DNA of 64,000 bases from contig CAVSDL010000008.1 of the NCBI GenBank assembly GCA_963726775.1, positions 105,063 through 169,062 on the forward strand, given 5' to 3'. The position numbers and the translations under genes are program-made. Of this stretch, positions 12,546 through 31,246 are shown one piece after another. Positions within the stretch are counted from its first letter, which is position 1, and each line of letters starts with the position of its first letter. This DNA is from an uncultured beta proteobacterium. Lineage in GTDB: Bacteria; Pseudomonadota; Gammaproteobacteria; Burkholderiales; Casimicrobiaceae. Below the pieces are notes generated by a model. It was given only the letters and a program-made list of their open reading frames with translations, was not told the origin of the DNA and did no database searches.

Positions 12546-12621
12546 GCGCTGCATGGTTGCCTCGAGGCGTGGGGGTCCACCCGTGAACGCGCGCGACGAT
12601 ACCGTTGCGCGGGAGCAGCCG

Positions 12622-14721: not shown

Positions 14722-16161
14722 CTATTGCCGGACAATTTTGTGAACGCCCCCGGCGGATGTCAGTACGTAGATCTCGTTCCGCGAGTCAACGCCGAATGAC
14801 TGGATATTTCCGACGGGCGTGACGCCCCAGTCGATCCGCTCGATTGCGACCCCGCCCGCGACGAGAAAACTTCGCAGCCAGCCTTTGCAGAAGTCGGTGT
14901 AGAAGTAATGTCCGGCAATTTCCGGCAGCGCCGTACCGCGATAGACGTATCCGCCCGTGATGGAGCAACCGTCGCCGTGGTCGTACTCGATGAGCGGCAT
15001 CGTGATGCCCGCGGGATTGCACGAGGCACCCGACGGGTAACAAATCGTTCCTTCCCAGATATTCCACCCGTAGTCGAGACCGGCTGCGCTGGCAGCGACG
15101 ACGTCCACTTCCTCGCGGCTGCTCTGTCCGACATCCGCTATGTAGAGACTTCGTGTCGTTCCGTCGAACGAGAATCGCCATGGATTCCGGACGCCGAACG
15201 CCCAGATTTCGGGGTGCTTGCCCGGCTGACCGACGAACGGGTTGTCCGGGGGCACTTTGTAGGGAAGCGAACTTACGTCGAGGCGGAGTATCTTGCCCAG
15301 CAGCGTATCGAGGTTCTGTCCGCTTCCGAACGGATCGCCGCCGCCGCCGCCGTCGCCGGTCCCGAGGTAAAGCATGCCATCCGGGCCGAATTGCAGTTGA
15401 CCTCCGTTGTGATTGCCAAAAGTGCGATGGGCAATGGTGAGGACACGGACCGCCGTCGACTCGGAACCCAAGGGGGGCGGCACGCCGCTCACCGGCAACG
15501 TGAAGCGTTCGATGGCTAGGTCGCCACTGGAATCCGTGAAACAGACGAACACATTGCCGGTGCTGGCAAATTGCGGGTCGAACGCCAGCGACAACATGCC
15601 GCGCTCGCCGCCGTAGCTCACGCGTGCCGAAATGTCGAGCACCGGCGCCTGCGGTACCCCATTCGCCAGCTTCCGGATGCGTCCGGGCTGCTCGACGACA
15701 TAGATGTCCGTCCCTCCCGGCGGCGACGCGAGGAACGTAGGGGATACAAGCCCCGACGCCACCGCTTCGAATCGGAGCTTCAACGGCGGCGCGAGCGCAT
15801 AGGTCACGGTCACCATAGTGATGCTCGGTGGAGCCGGCACGTTGATCGCCGACGGGACGACGGTTGCCGTATACGTTGCCGTGCCGGCAACCACCGGGTC
15901 GGCGCGCACGATGAAGGTGCCAGGACCGGTAACGATCGCCTCGCCGGTGGCATTCAGATTGCCGACGGCCTTGCCGTTCGGATCCGTGATCGTGACCGCG
16001 GCATTCACCCCGGCGGGAAGTCCGGCAACGGCAACATCGATCCGATTCTGCGGCGCGGTGGCGCTGCCCGACCCGCCACCGCCGCCGCCGCAGCCGGCAA
16101 GCGTTAGGCCGATCATGATGATCGCGCAGGTTCGCAACCGGCAATGGGGCCGCACGCGCAT
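14722..16161 (-). CDS. PQQ-dependent sugar (glucose/sorbosone) dehydrogenase-like lipoprotein
   Basis: ORF 14722..16701 trimmed to the ATG at 16161 (MRVRPHCRLRTCAIIMIGLTLAGC, lipobox LAGC). An Ig-like N-domain is followed by a beta-propeller with FGNHNGGQLQFGPDGMLYLGTGDGG and FGVRNPWRFSFD motifs typical of soluble PQQ dehydrogenases. Confidence 0.85.
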   Translation of the reverse strand: MRVRPHCRLRTCAIIMIGLTLAGCGGGGGGSGSATAPQNRIDVAVAGLPAGVNAAVTITDPNGKAVGNLNATGEAIVTGPGTFIVRADPVVAGTATYTATVVPSAINVPAPPSITMVTVTYALAPPLKLRFEAVASGLVSPTFLASPPGGTDIYVVEQPGRIRKLANGVPQAPVLDISARVSYGGERGMLSLAFDPQFASTGNVFVCFTDSSGDLAIERFTLPVSGVPPPLGSESTAVRVLTIAHRTFGNHNGGQLQFGPDGMLYLGTGDGGGGGDPFGSGQNLDTLLGKILRLDVSSLPYKVPPDNPFVGQPGKHPEIWAFGVRNPWRFSFDGTTRSLYIADVGQSSREEVDVVAASAAGLDYGWNIWEGTICYPSGASCNPAGITMPLIEYDHGDGCSITGGYVYRGTALPEIAGHYFYTDFCKGWLRSFLVAGGVAIERIDWGVTPVGNIQSFGVDSRNEIYVLTSAGGVHKIVRQ

Positions 16162-16617
16162 TCCCGGCGCGCCCGACGCGAAGCTGCTGCGGGTGCGCAA
16201 CCTCAGCACGGTCCCCCACCCGTGCATTTCCGGTAACCCGCGACGCCTTCGATCACTCCGCCGCCCCGCGTATTGAAGAAGTAATCGAGTCCGATCCCGC
16301 TGCCACCCGGGCCGGCGAAGAAGCCGGCGAAATTGCCGGCGACGAGCGGACGGCAGCCGTTGCCGACACAGCCTGCCGTGGCGCCCGCACATCGTCGACG
16401 GGCGCAGCGCATGCGCCGGCCGCTGCACCCGACACGAAGGCCGCCAGCAGGAGCGCGGAAGCGGGGATGTGCGAGTGCAGGGGGCGGGACATGACCGGGC
16501 ACCGGAGGGCGACAGCCGATCATAGCAAGGGGGGTTCCGCGGGGGAAGGGGCGTCGCGAGCAGCGTTCGCCAACACGCGCGGGCCATTGCGAACCTGAGT
16601 GGCATTTTCGCAAACAG

Positions 16618-16770
16618 GATCGTCATTTTCGCGAATGCGGAGACCCAGCGACGCTCGACCCAAGACACAGGATGGCCGTTCCTCGAAACTTCGCCGCTCA
16701 CGCGGCTCGTTTTCCCGCCTGCGCGGGAACGACGATATCTCTGCAGCCGCTGTCGCCCGATTCAATTGAG
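16618..16770 (+). repeat. Intergenic palindromic repeat, family 1, copy A (REP/MITE-like)
   Basis: Aligns with 39112-39254 and 56721-56826. Shared blocks are gatcgtc-ttcgcgaa(t/c)gcgg, ttcccgc-gcgggaacgacga and cttctgc-gccg(c/t)tgtc. It carries the 35-nt block ctcgaaacttcgccgctcacgcggctcgtt, which is also present in copy B. Confidence 0.75.
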
Positions 16771-16901: not shown

Positions 16902-16965
16902 CGACGCCTTGATCGCGAGGTGCGTGCGCGTGCGCGTGCAGGCGCTCATCGCCGGAGGGGGGCGC

Positions 16966-17799
16966 GTGCGGCACCAGTCGCTGCTGGCGTATGCGAAGTA
17001 CCGGTATCTGAAAGTCGCGGCGCTGGTCGTGGCCGCTACGATCGCCGCGTACGCGCTTCATCGCCCGCCGGGCGGCCGCTACGGCGGCACATGGCTCGGC
17101 TACACGCTGGGCACCGTCGGCATGCTCCTGATCATCGGGCTTGCCTGGTTTGGCGTCCGCAAGCGCCAGTACAGTTCGACCGCCGGGACGCTGCTCGGCT
17201 GGCTCTCCGCGCACGTGTATCTCGGCATCACGCTGCTCGTCATCGCCACGTTGCACGCCGCGTTCCAGGTCGGCTGGAACGTGCACACCCTTGCTTACGC
17301 GCTGATGGTTGCCGTGATCGCATCCGGCTTCTACGGTGTGTGGGCGTATCTCAAGCATCCGCGCGCAATCACCGACGCGCTCGGCGAAGATACGCAGGAG
17401 TCCCTGCTCCTGAAGATCGCCGACCTCGATCGGCAGATGCGCGCGCTGGCGCTGGCGCTTCCCGATGCCGTCAACCGGCTGGTGCTCGCGGCGGCGCAGG
17501 AGACGCGGATCGGCGGCAGCTGGCGCGAGCAGCTCGCCGGTCACGACGCACATTGTCCTACTACGGCTGCAGTGACGGGCCTGCAGGCTGTCGGCAAGAC
17601 GTTGCGCGGCGGCGAGGCGCAAGCGAGCCAGCAACTCTACGCGCTGATGGTGCGCAAGCAGGAACTTGTCGCGCGCGCGCGCCGCGCCGTCGCGCTGAAG
17701 GCGCGGCTCGACGCCTGGCTCTACATCCACGTGCCGCTGTCGATCGCGCTCGTCGCGGCGCTGGTCGCCCACGTGGTCAGTGTGTTCTTCTACTGGTAG
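16966..17799 (+). CDS. Five-TM membrane protein with two H-X13-H helices (putative dihaem cytochrome b-like redox subunit)
   Basis: ORF 16672..17799. Its 5-prime part is repeat copy A, so the start was moved to GTG 16966, 7 nt after GGAGG (16954-16958). TM3 is SAHVYLGITLLVIATLHAAF and TM5 is YIHVPLSIALVAALVAHVV. Each has two His residues separated by 13 residues. Confidence 0.6.
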   Translation: MRHQSLLAYAKYRYLKVAALVVAATIAAYALHRPPGGRYGGTWLGYTLGTVGMLLIIGLAWFGVRKRQYSSTAGTLLGWLSAHVYLGITLLVIATLHAAFQVGWNVHTLAYALMVAVIASGFYGVWAYLKHPRAITDALGEDTQESLLLKIADLDRQMRALALALPDAVNRLVLAAAQETRIGGSWREQLAGHDAHCPTTAAVTGLQAVGKTLRGGEAQASQQLYALMVRKQELVARARRAVALKARLDAWLYIHVPLSIALVAALVAHVVSVFFYW

Positions 17800-17814: not shown

Positions 17815-19563
17815 ATGAAGCTCCTGCTCGTCACCGTCACGCGCAACCGCAAGGGCCAGGCGGTGCGCGCGGCGCGCACGCTCGACGGCGAGTCGTTCGC
17901 GGTGGGCCGCGGCACGCCGTGCCCCGTCCACTTGCCCGATCCGCGCGTGGCGCTCGAGCACGCCACCATCTTCGCTGCCGGTGGCGCGACCCGGCTCGCG
18001 GCCGTTGGGGCGGCGACGCTGCTGGTGGACGGGCGCCCCGACCCGGAAGCCACGCTTGCGCCGGGCTCGAAGGTCGAAGTCGGACCGTACGTCCTGACGG
18101 TCGAGGTCCCACCCGCGGGCACGGACCTGGCGATCGCGATCGAATTGCAGCGCTCGCTTCCCGACGATCTCGCCGAAATCAAGGCGCGGTCGAGAATGTC
18201 GCTCGCGGCGACCGGCCTCGCGAAACGCAAGCCGGCGTGGGTGCTGTTAGCGATCGTTCTGGTGCTGTTTCTCGCGGTGCCGGTCGTCAACGCGCTGTAT
18301 CCGCCGCTGCGTGCGCTGACGGCGCAATTGCCGTTGACACCGGATCAGTCGTGGACACCGGGGCCGCTGGCGGCGGGACACGATGCCTTCGGCCGCGAGT
18401 GCGGCAAGTGCCATGAGGTCCCGTTCGTCCGCGTGCGCGACCGCACGTGCCTCGGATGCCATCAGAAGACCCCGGGGCACGCACCGACCGCGCAGTTGCA
18501 GGCCGACCTCTTCGGCGACACGCGCTGCGCGAGCTGCCACGCCGACCACAAAGGCACCGACGGACTGGTGCGCGCGGACTCGGCGCTATGCGCGGAATGC
18601 CACCGAGCGCTGAAGCGGCGATTCGCGGACACGGATCTCGGCGACGCTGCCGATTTCACCAAGGAGCATCCTGAATTCAGGCTCACGCTCTGGAGGGGCC
18701 CCGGCAACGACGACGTCGTGCGCGTCGCGCAGTCGGACAAGGCAAACCTCGTCGAAAAATCGCGCCTCAAGTTTCCGCACGAAGATCATATGAAGCAGAG
18801 CATTCGGAGTGCCAAGGGGCGCGTCACGCTGGAATGCCGGAGTTGTCATATGCCCGATGCCAGCGGCCGCTCCTTCGAGCCGGTCAACATGAAGAGACAT
18901 TGCATCGAATGCCACACGCTGGAGTTCGAGCCCGCGGTAACGACGCGCCAGGTTCCACACGGATCGGTCGACGAAGTCATGTTGACCATGCAGGAGTTCT
19001 ATGCAAGCATCGCCTTGAACGACGTCGCGGTCGATACCGTCGATACCGGCGAGATCCGGCGGGGGATACCCAGGCCCGCCGGAGGCACGGTCACCGAGGA
19101 GCAGCGTCAACGCGCCTTGGCGTGGGCCCGCAGCAAGGCCGGCAAGGTCGCGCAGGATCTGTTCGAGGCGCGGGTCTGCATCGTCTGTCACGAGGTCGTC
19201 AGAATGACGGGACCGGGGGGAGGGCAGAGCGAGACGGCCTGGAATGTCGCGCCCGTCCACGTCGCGACGAGTTGGCTTCCCAAGGCGCGGTTCGATCACC
19301 TCAAACATCGCACCTACAAATGCGATGACTGCCACGACCGGGTCGCGAAGTCGAAGTCCAGCAGCGACGTCTCCATCCCCGGCATCGAGTCCTGCCGTGT
19401 CTGTCACGCGGGCAACGAATCCGCGGCGAACAAGGTGGTGTCGACGTGCGTCGCCTGCCACGCCTTCCACGTGCCCGGCCATGCCCCGATGGGCCGACGC
19501 GCCGGCGCGGCCCGCGGGCACGACCTTGCGCGCGCACCGGCGACCTTCGGGAGCGTGAAGTGA
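17815..19563 (+). CDS. FHA domain - TM anchor - decahaem c-type cytochrome
   Basis: ORF 17815..19563. The N-terminal ~100 aa are FHA-like (FAVGRGTPCPVHLPDPRVALEHATIF...LLVDGRP...GSKVEVGPYVLTVE). One TM helix follows (AWVLLAIVLVLFLAVPVV). Ten CXXCH motifs are present: CGKCH, CLGCH, CASCH, CAECH, CRSCH, CIECH, CIVCH, CDDCH, CRVCH, CVACH. Confidence 0.85.
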   Translation: MKLLLVTVTRNRKGQAVRAARTLDGESFAVGRGTPCPVHLPDPRVALEHATIFAAGGATRLAAVGAATLLVDGRPDPEATLAPGSKVEVGPYVLTVEVPPAGTDLAIAIELQRSLPDDLAEIKARSRMSLAATGLAKRKPAWVLLAIVLVLFLAVPVVNALYPPLRALTAQLPLTPDQSWTPGPLAAGHDAFGRECGKCHEVPFVRVRDRTCLGCHQKTPGHAPTAQLQADLFGDTRCASCHADHKGTDGLVRADSALCAECHRALKRRFADTDLGDAADFTKEHPEFRLTLWRGPGNDDVVRVAQSDKANLVEKSRLKFPHEDHMKQSIRSAKGRVTLECRSCHMPDASGRSFEPVNMKRHCIECHTLEFEPAVTTRQVPHGSVDEVMLTMQEFYASIALNDVAVDTVDTGEIRRGIPRPAGGTVTEEQRQRALAWARSKAGKVAQDLFEARVCIVCHEVVRMTGPGGGQSETAWNVAPVHVATSWLPKARFDHLKHRTYKCDDCHDRVAKSKSSSDVSIPGIESCRVCHAGNESAANKVVSTCVACHAFHVPGHAPMGRRAGAARGHDLARAPATFGSVK

Positions 19564-21428
19564 ACGGAGGAAGCCGCGTCTTGCTGGCGGCCATCGTTCT
19601 CGCGGCGCTCGTCGCAGGCTGCGGCGGCGGCGGTGGCAACGGCGGCAGCCAGGTTTCGACGCCGAATGCACTGACGATCGCCGACGTGCAGCAAGTGATC
19701 GCGCAGGCGGTCGCCGAGGCACAGGCGCGAAACGCGAAGGCAACGATTGCGGTCGTCGATCGCGTCGGCAACGTGCTCGCGGTTTTCAGGATGAACGGCG
19801 CGGCAGCGACGTTCACGATCTCATCGGGCAGCGGCGTGGCCGGAGGGCTCGAGGGCCTGAACATCCTGCCTTCCGAACTGGCCGCGATCTCGAAGGCGAT
19901 CACCGGTGCGTATCTTTCGTCGGAAGGCAACGCGTTCACGACGCGGACCGCGAGCCAGATCATCCAGCAGAACTTCAACCCGGGCGAGCAGAACCAGCCG
20001 TCCGGGCCGCTGTCCGGCGTGCAATTCAGTCAGCTTTCGTGCTCCGACCTGAACCAGCAGGAAACGGCGGGGACCGTCGGACCGAAGCGCGCGCCGCTCG
20101 GCCTTTCCGCGGATCCGGGTGGAATGCCGCTCTACAAGGGCAGCACGCTTGTCGGCGGCGTCGGCGTCATCGCCGATGCGACGTATTCGCTCGACGCCGA
20201 TATCCAGAACACCGACACCGCTCCGGACGAATTGATCGCCGTTGCCGGCGCGTCCGGTTTCACCGCGCCCGCCGACCAGCGCGCGAACCGGATTACCGTT
20301 GATGGCCGTTCACTGAGATATGTCGACAGTGAGACGCTTGCGAGCAATCCGGCGAACGCGCCTTCGTTCGCGGCGATCGACGGCATCGCGGGCGCGTTGG
20401 TCAACGTCGCGGGGTACGGTGGCGCCCCAACGCGTTCCGGCGTCGTATTCGGCACGCCGGCGTCCGGTTTTCGCGCCGACACGAGCGCCGCATTTGCGGG
20501 AACCGGCGCGTACACGCTGGTCGACGCGGCCAACGCGGTCCGTTATCCGCCGACGGCCGGAACCGACGGCTACCTTACGCAGGCCGAGGTGACGCAGATC
20601 CTGCGCAGCGCGCTCGACGTCGCCAATCGCGCTCGCGCGCAGATCCGCCGGCCGCTCGGTTCGGCGGCGCAGGTTTCGGTCGTGGTCGTCGACACGAACG
20701 GAGTCGTGCTGGGACTGGTGCGCACGCCGGACGCGCCGGTGTTCGGCACCGACGTCGCGGTGCAGAAGGCCAGAAGCGCGGCGTTCTTCTCGAGCGCCAA
20801 CGCGGCGGCGCTGCTGTCGTCGCTGCCGCCCGCGCAATATCCGACCACTCCGGCCACGACCTCGTCGATCGCGGCGTACGTGACGGCCACACGACTGTTC
20901 CTCAATGATCCGACGGCGCTCGCCAACGGCGTGGCCTACGCGGTACGCAGCGTGGGGAACCTCTCGCGCCCGTACTTTCCCGATGGCATCGCGGGGACTG
21001 CGAACGGGCCGTTTTCGAAGCCGATCGCGATGTGGAGCCCGTTCAATGACGGTCTCCAGCTCGACCTCGTCGCCAACAAGCTCGTCGCCTCGCTGGCGCT
21101 GGGCGACAACTCGACCGGCTGCACCGGACTTTCCCAGCTGCCGAACGGCATCCAGATATTCCCGGGCGGCGTTCCTGTCTTCCGCGGCGGTCAGCTTGCG
21201 GGTGCTGTCGGGGTGTCGGGTGACGGCATCGACCAGGACGACATGGTCGCGTTCCTCGGGCTCGCCAATGCGGGCAAGGCGCTCGGCACGGGTGTCGCCA
21301 ATGCGCCGGCGGCGATCCGCGCCGACAACCTCGTGCCGCAGGGCACGGGCACGCGGCTGCGCTATGTGAATTGTCCGCAGGCGCCGTTCAATGGCAGCAG
21401 CGAACAGAATGTCTGTGCCGGGCTCTGA
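19560..21428 (+). CDS. Lipoprotein with two GlcG/DUF336 (haem-binding/degrading-like) domains
   Basis: GTG 19560 overlaps the upstream stop (GTGA) and gives VNGGSRVLLAAIVLAALVAGC (lipobox). Domain 1 reads LTIADVQQVIAQAVAEAQARNAKATIAVVDRVGNVLAVFRMNGA...GGMPLYKGSTLVGGVGV. Domain 2 reads LTQAEVTQILRSAL...VSVVVVDTNGVVLGLVRT...GGVPVFRGGQLAGAVGVSGDGIDQDD. Confidence 0.7.
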   Translation: MNGGSRVLLAAIVLAALVAGCGGGGGNGGSQVSTPNALTIADVQQVIAQAVAEAQARNAKATIAVVDRVGNVLAVFRMNGAAATFTISSGSGVAGGLEGLNILPSELAAISKAITGAYLSSEGNAFTTRTASQIIQQNFNPGEQNQPSGPLSGVQFSQLSCSDLNQQETAGTVGPKRAPLGLSADPGGMPLYKGSTLVGGVGVIADATYSLDADIQNTDTAPDELIAVAGASGFTAPADQRANRITVDGRSLRYVDSETLASNPANAPSFAAIDGIAGALVNVAGYGGAPTRSGVVFGTPASGFRADTSAAFAGTGAYTLVDAANAVRYPPTAGTDGYLTQAEVTQILRSALDVANRARAQIRRPLGSAAQVSVVVVDTNGVVLGLVRTPDAPVFGTDVAVQKARSAAFFSSANAAALLSSLPPAQYPTTPATTSSIAAYVTATRLFLNDPTALANGVAYAVRSVGNLSRPYFPDGIAGTANGPFSKPIAMWSPFNDGLQLDLVANKLVASLALGDNSTGCTGLSQLPNGIQIFPGGVPVFRGGQLAGAVGVSGDGIDQDDMVAFLGLANAGKALGTGVANAPAAIRADNLVPQGTGTRLRYVNCPQAPFNGSSEQNVCAGL

Positions 21429-23547
21429 CTTGTTGCGCGCAGCGTGCGCTGCGCTCGCCGTGGCGGCGATGGCCGGCGCCGGCGTTACGCTGGCGCAGAC
21501 TCCCGCCGCGGCGGCCAGAGGCGCGGCGGGGGCTGCGGCAAAGCCGGTCGATGGCCGCTACGGTATGCAGGTCCTCGCCGAGATCGTCAGCGTCCATTCG
21601 GAGCCGAACCCCAGGTCGGCGGTACTTGCCGATCTGCAACAGGGCGCAAAGCTGGAGGCCGATCAGCGCCGCGGCACCTGGTATCGCATCCGGCTTGCGG
21701 ACGGTCGCATCGGATGGATCGGCTACGTCGTCGGCAAGACGAGCGCGAATTTTTCGGTGGACGCCACGCCGGGGCTGGCGCGTGGCGTGCCGAGCGGCGC
21801 CGGTCAGCAGCCGGGGACTGTGGCCGCCGAGCCCGTGGCGCCGCCGGTTGTTGCCGCCGAAGCGGTTCCCGACGATCGCATCGTCGTGCAGCGACCGATG
21901 GGCAGACCGATCGAGCCGCCGATTCCCGAGATCGATCCAGCACAGGTGCCGCCTCCGGAGCCGCTCCTGCCGCGCGAGTCGATCCCGGTGCCCGACCGCT
22001 GGCGACTCACCGATCAGCTCGGCCTCACCGACAATCGCTGGTACGACCCGTACAACCCGAACACGCTGAAGGGCGACCGACCGGTATTCGGCGGCGACTG
22101 GTTCTTCAGCCTGGGCATCGTGTCCGACACGCTCTTCGAAGCGCGCCAGATTCCGACGCCCATCGGCGCGCAGTCCACCGATCGCCCGCAGTCGAACGAC
22201 CAGTTCGGCCGCAACCGGCAGTCGCAGTTCAACGAGAACCTGATCGTCAGCCTGTCGCTGCTGAAGGGCGACACGACGTTCAAGCCGCCGGAAATCGAGC
22301 TGCGGTTCGTGCCGGTCATCAACTTCAACCGCACGGACGTCGGCGAAGTCCGCGTGCTGAAGATCGATCCGCGCCAGGGGACGACGCGCAACGACAGCCA
22401 GGTCGCGGTGCAGGAGCTGTTCGTCGACTACGAGTACCACATCGCCTCCGAGCATTACGACTTCGACAGCGTTCGCGTCGGCATTCAGCCTATCACCGCC
22501 GATTTCCGCGGCCTGCTGTTCCTCGACCAGCCGCTGGGCATCCGCCTGTTCGGCACCCGCGACAACAACCAGTGGCAGTACAACTTCGGGTGGTTCCGCC
22601 GCCTCGAGAAGGACACCAACAGCGGCTTGAACGACATTGGCAAGCCTCTGCGCAACGAGAACATCTTTCTCGCCAACGTGTACCGCCAGGACTTCTGGGT
22701 TCCGGGATTCACGCTGCAAGGCACGGTGATCTACGACGACAACCGCGAGAGCGCGGACGCCTACTACGACAAGAACGGGTTCCAGGTCCGGCCCGCCATC
22801 ATGGGCGACGCGCGGCCGCACACGTATCAGGTCACCTACGTCGGCCTCAATGGCGACGGTCACTTCGGCCGCTGGAACCTCACCGCGTCGCTGTACGGCG
22901 CATTCGGGACGGTCAGCCACGATTCCCTTGCGCAGCAGAAGGTCGACGTCGCCGCCGCCTACGCGGTCGCCGAAGTCTCGCGCGATTTCGACTGGATCCG
23001 CGTGCGCGGCACGGGTCTTCTCCAGAGCGGCGACAAGGATCCGTTCGACAACAAGGCGACCGGCTTCGACGCGATCTACGAAAATCCGCAGATCGCCGGC
23101 GCGGACACCAGTTATTGGATCCGGCAGTCGGTCCCGCTGATCGGCGGCGGAGGCATAGCGCTCTCCGGACGCAACGGCGTGCTCGCCGCGCTGCGCTCGT
23201 CGAAGGACGAGGGCCAGGCCAATTTCACCAACCCCGGGCTCGCGCTGATCGGCGTGGGTGCCGACGCCGATCTCACGCCGCGCTGGCGCGTCATCGGCAA
23301 CCTGAACCAGTTGTGGTTCGCCAATACGTCGTCGCTGTCCGTCCTGCGCAACCAGGGCACGATCAGCCGCACCGTGGGCACCGACGTGTCGATGGCGGTC
23401 CAGTACCGTCCGCTGTTCTCGCAGAACGTCGTCCTGAATGCATCCGCGGCGGCGCTGATTCCGGGGCAGGGGCTGAAGCAGCTGTACGCGTTCGACGGCG
23501 GCAAGACGCAGTACTCGATCCTCTTCAACCTGCTGCTGACCTATTGA
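21409..23547 (+). CDS. Outer-membrane beta-barrel protein with N-terminal bacterial SH3-like domain
   Basis: ORF 21391..23547. ATG 21409 gives the signal peptide MSVPGSDLLRAACAALAVAAMAGAGVTLAQ. An SH3b-like segment follows (SVHSEPNPRSAVLADLQQGAKLEADQRRGTWYRIRLADGRIGWIGYV), then a Pro-rich linker. The remaining ~480 aa have alternating amphipathic strands and end in the aromatic terminus LFNLLLTY. Confidence 0.65.
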   Translation: MSVPGSDLLRAACAALAVAAMAGAGVTLAQTPAAAARGAAGAAAKPVDGRYGMQVLAEIVSVHSEPNPRSAVLADLQQGAKLEADQRRGTWYRIRLADGRIGWIGYVVGKTSANFSVDATPGLARGVPSGAGQQPGTVAAEPVAPPVVAAEAVPDDRIVVQRPMGRPIEPPIPEIDPAQVPPPEPLLPRESIPVPDRWRLTDQLGLTDNRWYDPYNPNTLKGDRPVFGGDWFFSLGIVSDTLFEARQIPTPIGAQSTDRPQSNDQFGRNRQSQFNENLIVSLSLLKGDTTFKPPEIELRFVPVINFNRTDVGEVRVLKIDPRQGTTRNDSQVAVQELFVDYEYHIASEHYDFDSVRVGIQPITADFRGLLFLDQPLGIRLFGTRDNNQWQYNFGWFRRLEKDTNSGLNDIGKPLRNENIFLANVYRQDFWVPGFTLQGTVIYDDNRESADAYYDKNGFQVRPAIMGDARPHTYQVTYVGLNGDGHFGRWNLTASLYGAFGTVSHDSLAQQKVDVAAAYAVAEVSRDFDWIRVRGTGLLQSGDKDPFDNKATGFDAIYENPQIAGADTSYWIRQSVPLIGGGGIALSGRNGVLAALRSSKDEGQANFTNPGLALIGVGADADLTPRWRVIGNLNQLWFANTSSLSVLRNQGTISRTVGTDVSMAVQYRPLFSQNVVLNASAAALIPGQGLKQLYAFDGGKTQYSILFNLLLTY

Positions 23548-23549
23548 GA

Positions 23550-26500
23550 ATGCGCGCGATGGCACATGGCAATCGTCGGACCGGCGACCGTCGGCAAGGA
23601 CAGGCGCGCGCCGGTGCCGTCTGCGCGGCGTGGCTGCCTCTGGCGGCCGGCGCGGTTCTCGCCGTGCTCTCCGCGCTGGCCTACGGGACCGGCGGGGAGT
23701 CGCCGGTGGCGCGCAACTACCTGCCGCAGGCGCCGGCGCCGGAACGCCAGACGCTCGCCGTGGCACAGGTGAAGTCGCAAGGCTGCAAGAGCTGCCACAC
23801 GGCGAGCGACCACGAGACGATGCACGTCAACCCCGCGGTGATCCTGGGATGCGCGGACTGCCACGGCGGCGACCCGAAGGTCACGAGGCCGCAGGGTGCG
23901 GAGCCGAAGGACCCGGCCTACCGGAACGCCGTGGCGAGCGCGCACGTGCTGCCGCGCTATCCGGTGGCGTGGAAATATCCGTCGAGCGCCAATCCGCCCG
24001 ACAGCTACACGCTGCTCAACCGCGAGGCGCCCGAATACGTGCGCTTCGTCAATCCCGGGGATTACCGCGTGGCGCGGGAATCCTGCGGCGCCTGCCATCT
24101 GCGCATCATCCAGGCGACCGAGCGAAGCCTGATGTCCAGCAGCGCCATGCTGTGGGGCGGCGGGTCGTACAACAACGGCATCCTGCCCTTCAAGCGCTAC
24201 GTGCTGGGCGAAGCGTATACGGCGCAAAGCGAGGCGGCGACGATCGTCAATCCGATCCCGCCGACGCCGCTGATGACCGAGAAAGGCATCCTGCCGCGGC
24301 TCTACCCGTTGCCGGCCTGGGAAACCGTGCCGCCGGGCGACGTCTTTCGCGTTTTCGAGCGCGGCGGGCGCGTGATCTCGAGCCAGTTCCCGGAAATCGG
24401 ACTGCCGAACATTGCCGGCGCGCTGCAAAGGCTCGACGAGCCCGGTCGCCCCGACATCCGGCAGTCGAACCGCGGGCCGGGCACCGGGCTCCGCATTTCG
24501 GTGCCGGTGCTCAACATCACGAAGACGCGGTTGAACGATCCGCACATGTGGTTCCTCGGGACGAACGAGCAGCCGGGTGACTACCGGTCGTCGGGGTGCT
24601 CCGGCTGCCACGCCGTCTACGCGAACGACCGCGACCCGAAGCACAGCGGCCCTTACGCGGCGTTCGGTCACGAAGGGCAGTCGCAAACCGCCGATCCGAC
24701 GATCGCGCGGGGCGAGTCCGGCCACCCGCTGAAGCACGAGTTAACGCGGGCGATTCCCTCGTCGCAGTGCATGGTCTGCCACATGCACCAGCCGAACGTT
24801 TTCGTGAATTCGTATTTCGGATTCATCATGTGGGACTACGAATCCGACGCGCCTTTCATGTGGCCGGAGAAGCAGCGTTACCCGACCGGCGCCGAGACGC
24901 GCGCGATCCTCGACCGCAATCCCGAGGAGGCGGCGATCCGCGGCAAGTGGAGCGACCCCGAGTTCCTTAAGGACGTCAGCGCGCTCAACGCGCAGCTCAA
25001 GGATACGCAGTTCGCCGACTACCACGGCCACGGCTGGAACTTCCGCGCGGTGTTCAAGCGCGACCGCAAGGGAACGCTGCAGGACAAGGACGGCAAGCCG
25101 GTCTCCGACGACGACCCGGACAAGTTCAAGAAGGCGGTGCACCTGACGTCGATCCACATGGACCTCGGCATGCACTGCGTGGACTGCCACTTCGCGCAGG
25201 ACGCGCACGGCAACGGCCACATCTACGGCGAGGTGGCGGCGGCCATCGAGATCGACTGCGCCGACTGCCATGGTACGGCGACGAAGTATCCGACGCTCTT
25301 CACGTCCGGCCCGGCTTCGCAGCCCGGCGGCACCGACCTGTCGCTGCTGCGCACGCAGGACGGGCGCAAGCGCTTCGAGTGGCGCGACGGCAAGCTCTAC
25401 CAGCGCGCGGCGCTCGACCCCGACAAGGAATGGGAGATGTCGCTGGTCAAGGACACCGTCAATCCGCTGCATCCGAAGTACAACGTCAAGGCCGCCAGGG
25501 CGAAGCTCATGTCGACCGGCGACTCGATGCAGTGGGGGCCCGGCGTCGACCCGCAGAAATACGCGCACGGCGACGACAAGGTGACCTGCCAGACCTGCCA
25601 CCTGTCGTGGACCACCAGCTGCGCGGGCTGCCACCTGCCGATCCAGGCGAACGCGAAGACCGAGCGCCACCACTACGAGGGCGGCGAAACGCGCAACTTC
25701 GCGACGTACAACCCGCAGGTCGCGCGCGACGACATGTTCCAGCTCGGCCGCCACGGCGATGCGAAGAACTTCAGGATCGCGCCGGTGCGCTCCAGCTCGG
25801 CGCTGGTGCTGTCGTCGACCAACATCAACCGCGAGCGGATCTACATCCAGCAGCCACCCGTCGCGGCGTCGGGATTCAGCTCGCAGGCGTTTGCGCCGCA
25901 CTATCCGCATACCGAGCGCAAGACCGAGACCAAGACCTGCCCCGACTGCCATCTGTCGAAGAGCAACGACAACAACGCGATCATGGCGCAACTCCTCCTG
26001 CAGGGGACGAATTTCGTCAACTTCGTCGGCTACAACGCGTGGGTCGGCGAGGAGCGCCGCGTCACTGCCGTGCAGGTGACCGAGTGGGACGAGCCGCAGG
26101 CCGTGATCGGCAGCTACCTGCACCGCTACGCGTACCCCGACTGGTACGCCCAGCACCAGCAGCGCGACAAACGGCTGCCGACGATGTCGACGCACGACAC
26201 GAAGGGCGCCGCCCGCTGCCTGCAACTGCGCGGCGAATACCTCTACGTCGCCGAAGGCGCGGGAGGGATGCGCGTCTACGACGTCGCCAGCATCGCCAAC
26301 AAGGGAGTGTCGCAGAAGATCCTGAGCGCGCCGTTCGCGCCCTGGGGCCAGGACACGCACATCCGCTCGACGAACGCCACCTGCGTGGCGCTGCCGACCA
26401 ACCAGCCGATCGCCCCGCAGCGCAACGAGGGCGATCTGATGCGGGTGACGAATCAGGAGCAGCCGTTCCACCCGATGTACAACTACGCGGCGATCACCGA

Positions 26501-27398
26501 CGCGGTCGAGGGCCTGATCCTCACCAACGTCAACACGCTCGCCGACGGCGACCCGCAGAACAACTTCCTCGTGCGCGCGGTGACGTGGAACGAGAACGGC
26601 ATTCTCAACGGCGCGCGCCACATCACGCTGGGCGGGCGCTACGCCTATGTCGCCGCCGATGCCGGGCTCGTCGTCGTCGATCTCGACGATCCGCTCAAGC
26701 CGAAGCTGGTCGCGATCGTCGCCCTGAAGGGTGTGCGCGCCTCGGCGCTGCAGTTCCGCTACCTGTTCGTTGCCGACGACGCCGGATTGACGACCGTCGA
26801 CGTCACCGATCCGGCGCGGCCGCGGCACGTGGGCACCGCGCGCGTCCCGCTTGCCGACGCCAACCGCATCTACGTGGCACGCACCTACGCCTACGTCGCC
26901 GCCGGCAAGGAAGGGCTTGCGATCGTCGACGTCGAGCAGCCGGAGGCGCCGAAGCTGTACATGAAATTCACCGCCGAAGGCAGACTCGACGACGCGCGCG
27001 ACGTCGTCGTCGGCAGCACCAACGCGTCGCTGTTCGCCTATGTCGCCGACGGCGCGAACGGCCTCAAGGTGGTGCAGATGACCGCGCCGGACACGCAGCC
27101 GAAATTCTACGGATTCTCGCCGGATCCCAAGCCGCAGCTGATCGCGTGGCGCGGTACGGTGACGCCCGCGCTGGCGCTGTCGAAGGGACTCGACCGCGAC
27201 CGCGCGGTGGATGAGACCGGCGGCCAGATCGCGGTGTTCGGCCGGATCGGCTCGCGCCCGTTCACGTTGGAAGAGATGAAGAAGTTCTACCAGCGCCCCG
27301 ACGGCACGGTGTGGACCGTGACCGACGAGGTCCGGATGCAGGAGTTCGTGCCCGCGCGCGCGACGGCGGCTGACACCCGGCCGTTGCCGAGGCAGTGA
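23550..27398 (+). CDS. Large decahaem c-type cytochrome fused to a C-terminal LVIVD-repeat beta-propeller (1282 aa)
   Basis: This is the real gene within track ORF 21444..27398. ATG 23550 lies 2 nt after the OMP stop. There is an N-terminal hydrophobic anchor or signal (AVCAAWLPLAAGAVLAVLSALAYG). Ten CXXCH motifs are present: CKSCH, CADCH, CGACH, CSGCH, CMVCH, CVDCH, CADCH, CQTCH, CAGCH, CPDCH. At least five LVIVD-type repeats follow (YLYVAEGAGGMRVYDV, YAYVAADAGLVVVDLDDP, YLFVADDAGLTTVDVTDP, YAYVAAGKEGLAIVDVEQP, FAYVADGANGLKVVQM). Confidence 0.85.
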   Translation: MRAMAHGNRRTGDRRQGQARAGAVCAAWLPLAAGAVLAVLSALAYGTGGESPVARNYLPQAPAPERQTLAVAQVKSQGCKSCHTASDHETMHVNPAVILGCADCHGGDPKVTRPQGAEPKDPAYRNAVASAHVLPRYPVAWKYPSSANPPDSYTLLNREAPEYVRFVNPGDYRVARESCGACHLRIIQATERSLMSSSAMLWGGGSYNNGILPFKRYVLGEAYTAQSEAATIVNPIPPTPLMTEKGILPRLYPLPAWETVPPGDVFRVFERGGRVISSQFPEIGLPNIAGALQRLDEPGRPDIRQSNRGPGTGLRISVPVLNITKTRLNDPHMWFLGTNEQPGDYRSSGCSGCHAVYANDRDPKHSGPYAAFGHEGQSQTADPTIARGESGHPLKHELTRAIPSSQCMVCHMHQPNVFVNSYFGFIMWDYESDAPFMWPEKQRYPTGAETRAILDRNPEEAAIRGKWSDPEFLKDVSALNAQLKDTQFADYHGHGWNFRAVFKRDRKGTLQDKDGKPVSDDDPDKFKKAVHLTSIHMDLGMHCVDCHFAQDAHGNGHIYGEVAAAIEIDCADCHGTATKYPTLFTSGPASQPGGTDLSLLRTQDGRKRFEWRDGKLYQRAALDPDKEWEMSLVKDTVNPLHPKYNVKAARAKLMSTGDSMQWGPGVDPQKYAHGDDKVTCQTCHLSWTTSCAGCHLPIQANAKTERHHYEGGETRNFATYNPQVARDDMFQLGRHGDAKNFRIAPVRSSSALVLSSTNINRERIYIQQPPVAASGFSSQAFAPHYPHTERKTETKTCPDCHLSKSNDNNAIMAQLLLQGTNFVNFVGYNAWVGEERRVTAVQVTEWDEPQAVIGSYLHRYAYPDWYAQHQQRDKRLPTMSTHDTKGAARCLQLRGEYLYVAEGAGGMRVYDVASIANKGVSQKILSAPFAPWGQDTHIRSTNATCVALPTNQPIAPQRNEGDLMRVTNQEQPFHPMYNYAAITDAVEGLILTNVNTLADGDPQNNFLVRAVTWNENGILNGARHITLGGRYAYVAADAGLVVVDLDDPLKPKLVAIVALKGVRASALQFRYLFVADDAGLTTVDVTDPARPRHVGTARVPLADANRIYVARTYAYVAAGKEGLAIVDVEQPEAPKLYMKFTAEGRLDDARDVVVGSTNASLFAYVADGANGLKVVQMTAPDTQPKFYGFSPDPKPQLIAWRGTVTPALALSKGLDRDRAVDETGGQIAVFGRIGSRPFTLEEMKKFYQRPDGTVWTVTDEVRMQEFVPARATAADTRPLPRQ

Positions 27399-27406: not shown

Positions 27407-28768
27407 ATGAGACCAACGACCCTCCGTTCCGATCAACGTCGCGCGCGCCTCGCCGGCTCGCTCGTCGCGGTGGCCCTGGCGCTTTTCGCCGCGGCAGCCG
27501 TCGCGCAGACAGCGGCCCCGGTCCCGCTGCCCTATCACGCCGCCGACAAGAGCATGGGCGTGGTCAATTGCGCGAACAGCCTGTGCCATGGCTCGGTGCA
27601 GCCGATCAGGGATTCGAACGTGCTGCAGACCGAATATGTGACGTGGTCGCGGGTCGACAAGCACGCACGCGCTTACAAAGTGCTCTTCAACGACCAGTCG
27701 CAGCGCATCGCCCGCAACCTGGGTCTTGCCAAACCGCCGCACGAGGAAGCGGTATGCCTCAACTGCCATGCGCACAATGTCCCTGCGGCGCAGCGCGGCG
27801 AGCGCTTCAAGTTCGACGACGGCGTGTCCTGCGAGGCCTGCCACGGTCCGGCGGGCCGCTGGCTCGCGGGCCATGCGCAGGACGGCGCCACGCACGCGGA
27901 CAACCTTAAGGCCGGCCTCTATCCGACCGACGATACGGTGCACCGGGCACAGCTGTGCCTGTCATGCCACTTCGGCAATGCCGACCGCTTCGTCACCCAC
28001 CGGATCATGGGCGCGGGGCACCCGCGGATGAGCTTCGAGCTCGACACGTTCACGACCGTCGAGCCCGCGCACTTCAAGCCCGATTCCGATTGGGAGAAGC
28101 GTAAGCGGATGTGGGACGGCGTCAAGGTATGGGCGATCGGGCAGGCGCTCGTCGTCTCCGAGATGATGGACGTGCTGGCCGATCCTAAGCGCGGGCGCGA
28201 CGGGTTGTTCCCCGAACTCGTGCTGTTCGACTGCCACGCCTGCCATCACCCGATGAGCGACAGGCGCTGGGCGCCGCGCATCGCCGGCCTGGGACCCGGC
28301 ACGGTGCGGCTCAACGACTCGAGCATGCTCATGGTGAGGCAGATCGCGCGCGTCGTGGATCCCGCGCTCGGCGAGCGCATTGCCGCGACGATGACGAAGC
28401 TCCAGCAGACGGTGACCGGCGGCGGCGACGCGATCGGGCAGGCGAATGCATTGAAGGCCGACATGGCGACGCTGATCGCCGTTCTCGACAAACGCACGAT
28501 CGGCGAGGCCGACATGCGCGCGATCCTCGCCGGTCTCGTCAATGACGGGCTGGCTGGCCAGTACCGCGACTACGCCGGAGCCGAGCAGGCGACCATGGCG
28601 ATCGGCAGCGTCGCCAATTTCATGTTCCAGCGCGGCGTGCTCAAATCGGCGCGGGATGTCAACGGCGGACTCGCCGCGCTGCAGGCGGCCGTCGCCGATG
28701 ACGAGCGCTACAGCCCCGGACGGTTTCAGGCGGCGTTGAGGAATTTCCGCGGAACCGTGGGGCTGTAG
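27407..28768 (+). CDS. Periplasmic multihaem cytochrome, cytochrome c554-like family
   Basis: ORF 27395..28768. ATG 27407 gives the signal peptide MRPTTLRSDQRRARLAGSLVAVALALFAAAAVAQ. There are four CXXCH motifs (CLNCH, CEACH, CLSCH, CHACH) plus one CX4CH (CANSLCH). The C-terminal half is helical and haem-free. Confidence 0.75.
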   Translation: MRPTTLRSDQRRARLAGSLVAVALALFAAAAVAQTAAPVPLPYHAADKSMGVVNCANSLCHGSVQPIRDSNVLQTEYVTWSRVDKHARAYKVLFNDQSQRIARNLGLAKPPHEEAVCLNCHAHNVPAAQRGERFKFDDGVSCEACHGPAGRWLAGHAQDGATHADNLKAGLYPTDDTVHRAQLCLSCHFGNADRFVTHRIMGAGHPRMSFELDTFTTVEPAHFKPDSDWEKRKRMWDGVKVWAIGQALVVSEMMDVLADPKRGRDGLFPELVLFDCHACHHPMSDRRWAPRIAGLGPGTVRLNDSSMLMVRQIARVVDPALGERIAATMTKLQQTVTGGGDAIGQANALKADMATLIAVLDKRTIGEADMRAILAGLVNDGLAGQYRDYAGAEQATMAIGSVANFMFQRGVLKSARDVNGGLAALQAAVADDERYSPGRFQAALRNFRGTVGL

Positions 28769-28831: not shown

Positions 28832-31246
28832 ATGCCTGAATCGTTCAAGATCGCCATCGTCGGTTCCGGTCCGTCCGGCCTCTCGGCCGCGGCGCACGCG
28901 GCCGAACTCGGCATCGCCCATGTGCTGCTGGAGTCGGAAAAGCAACCCGCCGACACGATCTACAAGTACCAGAAGGGCAAGTACGTGATGGCGGAGCCGT
29001 CGATCCTGCCGCTGCGCAGCCCGATGTCGTTCGCCGCCGGCACGCGCGAGAAGGTCCTTGGGGCATGGGACGCCGAACTGGCGAAGTACAAGGTAAACCT
29101 GCGGAAGGGCGCCGGGGTCACCGCCATTGCCGGGCAGAAGGGTGCCTTCGCCCTCACGCTCGCGGGGGGCGACACGGTTGCCGCCGAGCACGTGATCCTC
29201 GCGATCGGATTGCAGGGCAATCTGCGCAAGCTCGGTGCGCCGGGCGAAGACCTGCCCATCGTCCAGTACCAGCTCGACGACCCGAAGGAGTACGAGGACG
29301 AGACGATCATCGTCGTCGGCGCCGGCGACGCCGCGATCGAGAATGCGCTGGCGCTGGCGGAACAGAACCGCGTGATACTGATCAACCGCAACGAGGAATT
29401 CGCCCGCTGCAAGGAAGGCAACCTGAGCCTGGTCCTCGCGGCGATCAAGGATGGCAAGCTCGAATGCCGGTACCAGGCGTCGGCGGCGAACGTGGAGATG
29501 GTCACGACCGACGGCTGTCCCGCGCGATTCAATGCCAGGACGCCCGAGGGCGCCGAGACCATCGGCTGCCACCGCGTCATCGCGCGCCTGGGGGCGATCC
29601 CGCCACGCAAGCTGGTCGAGTCGTTCGGCGTCAAGTTCCCCAATGCGGACCCGGCGGCGGTGCCGCAGCTTTCCGATACCTACGAATCGAACGTGCCCGG
29701 CCTCTACATCATCGGCGCGTTGGGCGGCTATCCGCTGATCAAGCAGGCGATGAACCAGGGCTTTGAGGCCGTCGAATACATTCGTGGCAACCGCGTCGAG
29801 CCGGCGGACGAATCGCTGCTCAAGGCGAAGTTCGCGCATTACGTGCGGGCAAGGACGGTCGGCGAAGGGCTTTCGCTGCTGCAGAGGAATGTGCCGCTGC
29901 TGGCCGGCATCACAACGCTGCAGTTGCGCGAGTTCCTGATCGACAGCGACATTCGCACGCCGAAACCGGGCGAGATCGTCTTCAATCGCCTTGACTACAC
30001 GAACACATTCTACTCGATCGTCGAAGGCGAGGTCGGCGTCGAGCTCAACGGCGGAACGCCCGATGCGCGCTGGATCGTGCTCCGCTCCGGCGATTTCTTC
30101 GGTGAGCTATCGCTGATCTCCGGGCGCCGCCGCGCGGCGACGGTGAAGGCGGGACAGGACTGCGTGCTGGTCGAGACGCCGCGGCGCTCGATGCTGAAGC
30201 TGATCGCATCGGTCGACAGTGTGCGGCGCACGATCGACGCCACATTCCTGAAGCGAGCGATCCGCGCGTACCTGTCGCAGGAGTTGCCCGAGGCGGACCT
30301 CGATGCGCTTGCCGAAGGCGCGCAGATCAGGGCCGTCGCCGCCGGCGATACGCTGTTCGCCGAGGGTGCTGCAGCCGACGGACTCTATCTGATACGCCGT
30401 GGATCAGTGACGGTGTCGCGCCGGATCGGCGGCCGCGATGTCGTGCTGTCGTACGTCGCGGCCGGCAACTATGTCGGCGAGATGGCGCTCCTGTCCGACG
30501 CCCCGCGGATGGGAACCGTGAAGGCTGCGGTGGCGACCGAGGCGATCGTCCTCGACGGCGCGCGGTTCAAGGACGTCGTGGCGCGGCATCCGAAGCTGCG
30601 CGAGTCGATGGAGAGCCGTTTTCTCGACCGCATCCGCGCCAATGTGCAGATGGAATCGCAGGGCGAGTCGGGCAACGTCATCAGCTACCTGCTGCAGCAG
30701 GGCATCGGCGAGGCCACCGACGTCCTGCTGATCGACGAGAGCCTGTGCATACGCTGCGATAATTGCGAAAGGGCGTGCGCCGACACGCACGAAGGCACGT
30801 CGCGGCTCAATCGCGAGGCCGGCCCGACCTACGCGCAGCTCCACGTGCCGACGTCGTGCCGCCATTGCGAGCACCCCCACTGCATGAAGGACTGCCCGCC
30901 GGACGCGATCCACCGGGCGCCGAACGGCGAAGTGTTCATCATGGACACCTGCATCGGCTGCGGCAATTGCGAGCGCAATTGTCCCTATGGCGTCATCCAG
31001 ATGGCCCCGCTGGATCCGCGGCGCCGCGCGCCGAGCCTGTGGTCGTGGCTGCTATGGGGAACGGGCGCCGAGCCCGGCCGCGAGGAAAAGGTCTACGACA
31101 AGTCGATGGTCAAGAAGGCCGTCAAGTGCGACATGTGCAAGGGCCAGGCCGGCGGCGCCGCCTGCGTGCGCGCCTGTCCCACGGGAGCCGCGCTCCGCGT
31201 GTCGCCGGAGAAATTCCTCGATTACGCGAGCGGGGTCGAAGTCTGA
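28832..31246 (+). CDS. Fusion protein: FAD/NAD(P)-dependent pyridine nucleotide-disulfide oxidoreductase domain + two cyclic-nucleotide-binding domains + four-cluster [4Fe-4S] ferredoxin domain
   Basis: ORF 28832..31246. Dinucleotide folds: IAIVGSGPSGLSAA and IIVVGAGDAAIENA. cNMP signatures: FFGELSLISGRRRAATVKA and YVGEMALLSDAPRMGTVKA. Cys motifs: CIRCDNCERAC, CRHCEHPHCMKDCP, CIGCGNCERNCP, CDMCKGQAGGAACVRACP. There is no signal or Tat peptide. Confidence 0.85.
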   Translation: MPESFKIAIVGSGPSGLSAAAHAAELGIAHVLLESEKQPADTIYKYQKGKYVMAEPSILPLRSPMSFAAGTREKVLGAWDAELAKYKVNLRKGAGVTAIAGQKGAFALTLAGGDTVAAEHVILAIGLQGNLRKLGAPGEDLPIVQYQLDDPKEYEDETIIVVGAGDAAIENALALAEQNRVILINRNEEFARCKEGNLSLVLAAIKDGKLECRYQASAANVEMVTTDGCPARFNARTPEGAETIGCHRVIARLGAIPPRKLVESFGVKFPNADPAAVPQLSDTYESNVPGLYIIGALGGYPLIKQAMNQGFEAVEYIRGNRVEPADESLLKAKFAHYVRARTVGEGLSLLQRNVPLLAGITTLQLREFLIDSDIRTPKPGEIVFNRLDYTNTFYSIVEGEVGVELNGGTPDARWIVLRSGDFFGELSLISGRRRAATVKAGQDCVLVETPRRSMLKLIASVDSVRRTIDATFLKRAIRAYLSQELPEADLDALAEGAQIRAVAAGDTLFAEGAAADGLYLIRRGSVTVSRRIGGRDVVLSYVAAGNYVGEMALLSDAPRMGTVKAAVATEAIVLDGARFKDVVARHPKLRESMESRFLDRIRANVQMESQGESGNVISYLLQQGIGEATDVLLIDESLCIRCDNCERACADTHEGTSRLNREAGPTYAQLHVPTSCRHCEHPHCMKDCPPDAIHRAPNGEVFIMDTCIGCGNCERNCPYGVIQMAPLDPRRRAPSLWSWLLWGTGAEPGREEKVYDKSMVKKAVKCDMCKGQAGGAACVRACPTGAALRVSPEKFLDYASGVEV

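Follow-up and report, generated by a model that had tools for sequence, protein, structure and literature searches.

What is the role of a secreted polypeptide in which a ten-haem c-type cytochrome is joined to repeats of the LVIVD family? This question is raised by a gene at positions 23550 to 27398 of a 64,000-nucleotide stretch of contig CAVSDL010000008.1 from an uncultured beta proteobacterium (assembly GCA_963726775.1), a stretch hereafter called the window. Most work on multihaem cytochrome systems has concerned anaerobic metal reducers and iron oxidisers. Based on the features of the gene product, hereafter the target, and of the genes that accompany it in other genomes, we propose, with a probability of roughly 0.5, that the target may be the terminal redox subunit of a trans-envelope electron-transfer module linked to NAD(P)H. 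No published description of the target protein was found in the literature searched, in which only a preprint on the ptd operon, discussed below, describes a related backbone.

The 1282 codons of the target are open without an internal stop, and the long antisense and out-of-frame open reading frames (ORFs) that lie over them are shadow ORFs, as the DNA is ~66% G+C. CXXCH motifs occur at amino acids (aa) 79, 101, 179, 350, 407, 543, 570, 680, 691, and 797, and 20 of the 23 cysteines of the protein lie within these motifs, with three elsewhere; based on its own Cys and His frequencies, about 0.01 such motifs would be expected by chance. The whole protein matched Pfam LVIVD (PF08309) with 84.1 bits (E=4e-24; gathering threshold 20.2 bits), the C-terminal portion alone (aa 868-1282) matched with 93.3 bits in five stretches, and a pattern search located six repeats of this type (aa 897, 977, 1031, 1071, 1113, and 1162). 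An earlier note on this DNA, made from the sequence, had described a single decahaem-LVIVD polypeptide of 1282 aa, with ten widely spaced CXXCH motifs and at least five C-terminal repeats. Its coordinates and architecture were confirmed, and its ten motifs are indeed spread over ~720 residues (aa 79-801). The N-termini of target orthologues have the n-region, h-region and AXA sites of ordinary Sec signal peptides, and no lipobox was seen in any of those inspected, so the mature protein should, to judge by these N-termini, be soluble in the periplasm unless it is held by a partner. Based on the conserved set of CXXCH motifs and the Sec export signal, we assign the target to the multihaem c-type cytochromes.

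The AlphaFold2 model of the target (aa 66-1265, calculated from 48 aligned sequences and containing no haem) had a mean predicted local distance difference test (pLDDT) value of 75.8 and a predicted template modelling (pTM) score of 0.81. Its C-terminal third was modelled as a propeller of about seven blades with four strands per blade, with pLDDT values mostly >90 (model residues 764-1165), and a Foldseek search with the full-length model returned only generic propellers, including AztD, the BtuG-type protein BT1954, BamB and LRP6, the top ones with a probability of 1.0. The LVIVD repeats are therefore modelled with high confidence as a beta-propeller, and whether they match LVIVD or any propeller model, a check that the earlier note had set for itself, was answered positively both by Pfam and by the structural comparison. 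Mapping of domains by profile hidden Markov models and structure prediction, which the same note had proposed, yielded the LVIVD domain and the propeller, but a haem domain that resembles no solved fold. The haem region had pLDDT values of about 70-85 in the full-length model and 70.4 when modelled alone, with a beta-rich stretch at ~aa 609-785, and in a Foldseek search of the PDB with this domain alone nothing was found at the cut-off of E<=0.001. One segment, aa 257-345 (window positions 24318-24584), had pLDDT values <50 in both models, yet its column identity of 0.8-0.89 is the top conservation in the protein, and invariant Arg, Asp, and Glu are abundant there; the segment may contact a partner or the haems.

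In sequence and profile searches of the PDB only marginal local matches were obtained near the haem motifs: one to the alternative complex III subunit ActA (E=1e-3) and one to NrfA of E. coli (E~6e-3). Assignment to the OmcA/MtrC family, which is characterised by a lipoprotein signal and by two pentahaem domains in alternation with two beta-barrel domains, was rejected, since the match to PF22113 (25.6 bits, aa 74-187) is below the cut-off of 30, TIGR03507 was not matched, there is no lipobox and Foldseek returned no cytochrome from the PDB. Similarly, the MtrA/DmsE model (TIGR03508) gave no match, and the members of that family are compact ten-haem proteins (~300-350 aa), in contrast to the ~720 residues over which the ten motifs of the target extend. 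The best curated family was ExtM (NCBIfam NF040943), described as a 12-haem, 68-kDa protein, yet the score was 59.6 bits against a cut-off of 800 and the matches were local only. Relationship to NrfA, HAO, OTR, or MccA was also rejected based on the lack of a CXXCK or long-spacer (CX15CH) motif in the target, the local nature of the NrfA match and the lack of a Foldseek match. The earlier statement that this is not a compact MtrA or c3 fold is in agreement with these results, the haem domain having no fold match in the PDB and the MtrC, MtrA, and ExtM models being unmatched at their cut-offs; the sequence could conceivably conceal an active site of a novel type.

When one genome per species was scanned, relatives of the target were present in at least 592 species-level genomes. 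The 80 top-scoring loci (65-85% identity; hereafter the best 80 loci) represent Acidobacteriota and Marinimicrobia as well as Beta-, Gamma-, and Alphaproteobacteria. Since the architecture is a single ORF in these 80 loci and in relatives at ~36-52% identity, the fusion appears to be ancient and stable, and the idea that a hidden stop separates two genes, which the earlier note had named as a possible refutation, fails. The alternative that a cytochrome gene and an LVIVD gene were merged by a sequencing or assembly error would require the same error in 80 independent loci, in the distant relatives and in finished Sphingobium replicons that have the same architecture; in addition, AlphaFold2 gives one packed body. 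We consider such an artefact extremely improbable.

A word-indexed protein search recovered >7000 relatives of the target, of which the best 120 were full-length (~1220-1300 aa) and 72-88% identical; the source names of the top relatives were "hypothetical protein," "multiheme c-type cytochrome," and "LVIVD repeat." Exactly ten CXXCH motifs are present in 79 of 81 orthologues, most of which are 1245-1340 aa long. With the haem domain alone as the query, 605 clusters were found at E<=1e-30 in a protein library clustered at 50% identity, and LVIVD was present in all six full-length distant relatives tested (phmmer identity 40-51%; two at 37-39% by BLASTP). Cultured carriers include Limnobacter alexandrii LZ-4, Fontimonas sp., Steroidobacter agaridevorans SA29-B, Parahaliea maris HSLHS9, and a Halieaceae isolate, and thirteen megaplasmids of Sphingobium and Sphingopyxis, including finished Sphingobium replicons, also bear the gene. 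The Acidobacteriota orthologues (L013, L016, and L029) are 71-72% identical to the window protein, compared with 65-68% for many from Gammaproteobacteria, and this closeness, together with the presence of the gene on megaplasmids of Sphingobium, of which one was typed as conjugative, suggests that the cassette of genes to which the target belongs has been transferred horizontally. The family also includes a 1648-aa member (P0136) with 28 CXXCH motifs, in which extra c7-, c3-, and MtrC-like haem domains precede the conserved decahaem-propeller body.

Residue conservation was examined in 48 sequences with identities down to 41%. Outside the CXXCH motifs His 396, 413, 531, 536, 553, 673, 708, and 787, along with Met195, are invariant and five further His are nearly so, and there are therefore enough candidate ligands for each of the ten haems to have a His/His or a His/Met pair. 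The propeller has a different set of invariant residues (E896, D911, K918, D984, E987, N1004, N1005, N1014, Y1071, R1216, R1218, D1221, and R1232), and its C890, C945, H869, H974, and H1024 are kept in close orthologues but substituted in distant relatives. On this basis, the idea that the propeller holds a metal centre like that of NosZ or TcDH was rejected. The loss of these His and Cys residues and the invariant polar and charged set argue against a His/Cys metal centre and favor a binding or docking surface, and we consider the propeller most likely to be a docking or substrate-binding domain rather than a site for a metal cofactor, based on these conservation patterns.

By tblastn of the window's neighboring genes against the best 80 loci, the target was found to be part of a seven-gene cassette (Table 1), beyond which no other conserved flanking genes were detected in these loci. 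A membrane protein, an FHA-anchored decahaem cytochrome, a lipoprotein, a predicted barrel protein and the target are encoded in a collinear block, to which the genes for a pentahaem cytochrome and a cytoplasmic flavoprotein are linked in varying positions, the latter in 62 of the 80 loci and at either end. The barrel gene is directly upstream of the target gene in all 80 loci and in both distant loci examined. Conservation within the cassette is highest for the target, which has a median identity of 69% versus 37-58% for its partners. In the window the barrel gene stops 2 nucleotides before the ATG of the target gene, whose own stop is 8 nucleotides before the likely ATG of the pentahaem gene. 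Since the start and stop codons of successive genes overlap or lie close together throughout the cluster, the genes probably form a single operon.

Table 1. Positions in the window of the target gene, its parts and the other members of the cassette.
Feature	Position	Strand	Basis
Inner-membrane protein with two HX13H motifs; start codon uncertain (GTG 16924-16966)	16924..17799	+	Conserved His, sub-threshold Pfam matches
Decahaem cytochrome anchored in the inner membrane: ten CXXCH, one transmembrane helix, FHA-like domain at the cytoplasmic N-terminus	17815..19563	+	Domain scan, alignment
Lipoprotein with lipobox LVAGC and three HbpS/GlcG-like domains; GTG start overlaps preceding stop	19560..21428	+	PF03928 in three stretches
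Barrel protein: signal peptide, SH3 domain, Pro-rich linker, predicted ~520-aa outer-membrane beta-barrel, end ...LLTY	21391..23547	+	SH3_3 match
Target gene: secreted decahaem c-type cytochrome with C-terminal LVIVD beta-propeller, 1282 aa	23550..27398	+	Translation, motifs, Pfam
Target, signal peptide of the Sec type (aa 1-45); cleavage probably follows ALA at aa 43	23550..23684	+	Read from sequence; orthologue N-termini
Target, haem-binding region: ten CXXCH (aa 79-801), long inserts between	23784..25952	+	Motif scan, models
Target, predicted beta-propeller of about seven four-stranded blades; LVIVD repeats aa 897-1176	26034..27239	+	AlphaFold2, Foldseek, Pfam
Probable periplasmic pentahaem cytochrome, c554-like: conserved CX4CH and four CXXCH; likely ATG 27407 preceded by GAGGA	27407..28768	+	Domain scan, alignment
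Cytoplasmic 804-aa protein: FAD/NAD(P) pyridine-nucleotide-disulfide oxidoreductase, two cyclic nucleotide monophosphate (cNMP)-binding domains, four [4Fe-4S] motifs	28832..31246	+	Domain scan

Several features of the partners are relevant to how electrons might reach the target. The His pairs of the membrane protein (181/195 and 353/367, ORF numbering) are on separate helices and are kept in 60 orthologues and in the distant loci. Its matches to cytochrome b561 (PF01292), Ferric_reduct, and DUF4405 are sub-threshold, with no family above the cut-off. Paired HX13H motifs are classically the mark of transmembrane carriers with two b haems, and the protein is a candidate for a new one. The anchored decahaem cytochrome has ten additional conserved His along with its ten motifs. 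The cytochrome encoded downstream of the target is probably a pentahaem protein, based on its conserved CX4CH (C59...C64-H65) in addition to the CXXCH motifs, and its last ~170 aa have no haem motif. No signal peptide was seen in the sequence of the 804-aa protein. The nearest solved relatives of the lipoprotein are EfgA and GlcG-like proteins. In the barrel protein the C-terminal aromatic residue is conserved, the SH3 domain can be aligned in just some of the loci, that of Limnobacter among them, and no relative of the barrel region was found in Pfam or the PDB.

The arrangement of the cassette varies between carriers. In Sphingobium herbicidovorans, for example, the same seven genes form two divergent operons, for which the names given by PGAP are generic; in strain MH they are on pMSHV (B6S01_RS18410-18455), where the target gene is B6S01_RS18425. 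Next to the cassette, ~10-13 of the 80 loci have either genes for a PP2C phosphatase and a tandem-FHA protein (L077, 15029-16832) or Ccm genes for cytochrome c maturation (L020, 3-3198), and the former pair hints at phospho-threonine control. Fur, FNR, and CRP boxes upstream of the cassette were no commoner than in shuffled sequence in a low-power test of 50 loci, and no Rfam families or transfer RNAs were detected within the window.

The presence of a barrel gene that always adjoins the target gene, and of three multihaem cytochromes within one operon, raises the possibility that the target is a surface-exposed cytochrome of extracellular electron transfer, in which the propeller binds minerals, electrodes, or humic particles and the barrel is the sheath of an MtrCAB/Pcc-type conduit. 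The weak match to MtrC/MtrF domain II/IV at aa 74-187, the description of LVIVD in the literature as a cell-surface repeat and the biocathode origin of one carrier metagenome-assembled genome (L062) are in keeping with this, and the earlier note had likewise suggested a substrate- or mineral-binding head attached to a haem conduit. However, the Sec signals of the orthologues inspected lack a lipobox, MtrC-type models are sub-threshold and have no structural counterpart, no type II secretion genes are conserved nearby, and strict aerobes and open-ocean plankton are among the carriers. In addition, identity of 65-70% across classes is unlike the fast evolution that is established for surface cytochromes. 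The pTM score suggests that the propeller is packed with the haem domain in one body, not tethered to it as a head would be, and its His and Cys residues are not conserved in distant relatives. We therefore regard the surface reading as unlikely.

Further indications of the role of the target are provided by distant versions of the module, in all of which, among those compared, the two HX13H motifs are kept. A Ca. Binatia locus encodes a target homologue at 39% identity, a barrel, an HX13H protein and a separate cNMP-binding and Fe-S protein, along with a 1296-aa fusion (L082, 4278-8168) in which three FHA domains and a transmembrane helix are followed, in this order, by nine CXXCH motifs, another transmembrane helix, a ferredoxin motif, and Pyr_redox. 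This single chain, in which a periplasmic multihaem loop is joined to a cytoplasmic flavoprotein, is good evidence that the two act together across the membrane. In other lineages, homologues of the cNMP-binding and Fe-S protein (~30% identity) adjoin different terminal partners. One such version, from Polyangiaceae, has an HX13H-pentahaem fusion with faint matches to the NrfA family (PF02335) and a separate lactonase-type propeller, and another has an HX13H protein, an octahaem cytochrome and a Tat-signal molybdopterin oxidoreductase; alternative-partner versions are found in loci L085 (10001-16005), which a Ser/Thr kinase gene adjoins, and L084 (7560-15227). Based on these partner swaps, the input module looks modular and the terminal enzyme appears to be its variable part, a place that is taken in the window by the decahaem-propeller protein. 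The earlier proposal that the target is the candidate terminal reductase or oxidase of the operon fits this context, both because it is the most conserved member of the cassette and because sister clusters appear to swap the terminal enzyme; the ptd operon, too, combines a backbone of this kind with a pentahaem protein of the NrfA family.

The expectation that the target is a terminal redox subunit leads to the following putative pathway. Electrons from NAD(P)H would pass to flavin adenine dinucleotide (FAD) and then to the four [4Fe-4S] clusters of the cytoplasmic 804-aa protein, with regulation possibly exerted through its cNMP-binding domains. They would cross the inner membrane via two b haems of the HX13H protein and be received by the FHA-anchored decahaem cytochrome, with the pentahaem protein possibly acting as a shuttle. 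From there they would run along the ten-haem chain of the target to a final acceptor, which may be a substrate reached through, or at, the outer-membrane barrel. By analogy with other systems we favor the reductive direction, with electrons flowing outward from NAD(P)H, although we are less certain of it than of the assignment of the target as the terminal subunit.

A number of considerations weigh against this proposal. The direction of flow is drawn from analogy and thermodynamics, the continuity of the haem chain in the target is an assumption, and the members of the family are known through their sequences and predicted models. The pLDDT of the haem domain is modest (70-76), and the best-conserved segment of the protein, aa 257-345, is poorly modelled. 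The HX13H protein reaches only sub-threshold scores for families of b-type cytochromes and could instead be a quinol-oxidising subunit, as in CbcL, and the 804-aa protein could be a sensor or regulator instead of the electron donor. Lastly, the barrel is a prediction from sequence for which Pfam and the PDB provided no structural confirmation.

Since the same list of parts could run either way, the target could also be an oxidase. Electrons would then flow inward from a donor in the periplasm or outside the cell, for example Fe(II), Mn(II), a reduced form of sulfur or nitrogen, or reduced humics, and would end in the quinone pool or in the cytoplasmic Fe-S flavoprotein. A link to quinones is usual for dihaem b subunits of the PF01292 type, although the match here is weak, and known lithotrophic or facultative genera (Limnobacter, Methylobacter, and Rhodoferax) are among the carriers. 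However, it is established in bioenergetics that electrons of a periplasmic c-type chain can reduce NAD(P)+ only uphill and against the membrane potential, and the fusion of a multihaem domain with Pyr_redox and ferredoxin domains points to a direct link with NAD(P)(H), not with quinone. In addition, the sister clusters hold a pentahaem protein that is faintly NrfA-like or a molybdoenzyme, for which the families suggest a reductase role. Inward flow is thus doubtful, and more so than the surface location considered above.

A more specific form of the outward pathway is also conceivable, although we regard it as improbable as well. The cassette may be a mobile, NOX-like device of aerobes and facultative bacteria of soil, fresh water, and the open ocean, in which NAD(P)H would feed two b haems and ~25 c haems and, through them, a new outer-membrane multihaem-propeller enzyme that reduces an external or periplasmic oxidant. 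Candidate reactions for such a device are the reduction of Fe(III) or Mn(III/IV) to release the metal for uptake, the reduction of iodate and the production of extracellular superoxide; to our knowledge, the catalysts of these reactions in aerobes are largely unidentified.

The closest described system is the ptdABCDEFG operon of the marine alphaproteobacterial order UBA11136 and others, whose function is unknown and which its authors considered previously undescribed (bioRxiv 10.1101/2023.11.21.568154). The operon, for which the sequences from Tistlia consotensis (SMF72578-SMF72608) are one example, encodes a porin (PtdB), an oxidoreductase of the FAD/NAD(P) type (PtdC), a tetrahaem cytochrome (PtdD), an Fe-S protein that binds cNMP (PtdE), a membrane protein resembling ferric reductases (PtdF), a decahaem cytochrome of the periplasm (PtdG), and a terminal pentahaem protein of the NrfA family with a beta-sandwich (bioRxiv 10.1101/2023.11.21.568154). 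Judged by domain content and the published description only, the window has a functional equivalent of each of the parts PtdB to PtdG. The systems differ in their terminal protein, which in ptd is PtdA, a pentahaem protein with a beta-sandwich related to NrfA (COG3303) and the T. tepidum c552, whereas in the window it is the 1282-aa decahaem-propeller protein. Consistent with this difference, the target family profile did not match the c552 entry 5ze8, which the neighboring pentahaem protein matched at E=0.03 only. The window also adds an HbpS-like lipoprotein and an FHA-like anchor, and its equivalents of PtdC and PtdE are fused in one protein. A tblastn search of plasmids with the anchored decahaem cytochrome, aimed at ptd-type clusters, returned the same Sphingobium replicons only.

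The cassette resembles the porin-cytochrome conduits (MtrCAB, PioAB/MtoAB, and Geobacter Pcc/Ext) in having a barrel gene beside multihaem genes and a putative chain that spans the envelope. Unlike these conduits, the window lacks a surface cytochrome of the lipoprotein type, scores for the MtrC, MtrA/DmsE, and ExtM models do not reach their cut-offs and the barrel matches no known family. In addition, the conduits use a quinol dehydrogenase of the CymA, ImcH, or CbcL type, whereas the input in the window appears to be a cytoplasmic NAD(P)H flavoprotein. In NOX/FRE proteins and in FdnH-FdnI, NAD(P)H/FAD or Fe-S centres feed two stacked b haems that are held by paired His on two helices. The two HX13H motifs of the window's membrane protein are similar; however, the parts in the window are separate subunits with sub-threshold family scores, and the chain is predicted to continue into c-type multihaem proteins. 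Taken together, the target is best filed as a variant of the porin-cytochrome and Ptd-like electron-transfer systems, within a very large uncharacterised family.

The combination of one or more haem c domains with a beta-propeller in one enzyme is also known from NirS (cd1), hydrazine synthase, and the quinohaemoprotein dehydrogenases. There, the cofactor or active site (haem d1 or pyrroloquinoline quinone) is housed in the propeller, whereas the His and Cys residues of the target propeller are not retained in distant relatives, and no sequence or fold relation between the target and these NirS-type enzymes was found beyond a generic propeller. A likeness to the docking role proposed here is seen in propellers that dock to outer-membrane partners, such as the NHL proteins UetH/I and the DFE proteins of D. 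ferrophilus, BtuG on BtuB, and BamB, and NHL propellers have been discussed in the literature as stabilisers of outer-membrane cytochrome complexes. These propellers are separate proteins of other repeat families, in contrast to the LVIVD propeller of the target, which is covalently fused to the cytochrome.

The breadth of the target family is of interest because it spans hundreds of species-level genomes, including those of ordinary aerobic heterotrophs (Sphingobium, Limnobacter, Steroidobacter, and Halieaceae), and because 65-70% identity is retained across phyla by a protein whose haem domain has no recognisable solved fold. The module appears to be wired to cytoplasmic NAD(P)H and not to the quinone pool. 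If the proposed chain is correct, it would represent an unrecognised and widespread exit for reducing power from the cytoplasm, with a substrate of possible geochemical importance. As several carriers have been cultured, the function is open to genetics and biochemistry.

Two other regions of the window, upstream of the cassette, are also of note. On the reverse strand, 14722-16701 encodes a protein with a glucose/sorbosone dehydrogenase (GSDH) propeller in its C-terminal half; its ~320 N-terminal residues are unassigned and may be an over-extension of the ORF. On the forward strand, 10233-14677 holds a three-gene set resembling 2-oxoacid:ferredoxin oxidoreductase, which is not conserved beside the cassette in other genomes; it encodes a 770-aa GltD-like NAD(P)-binding protein with a C-terminal ferredoxin domain (NF009410, above the cut-off), followed by PorA-like and PorB-like subunits.

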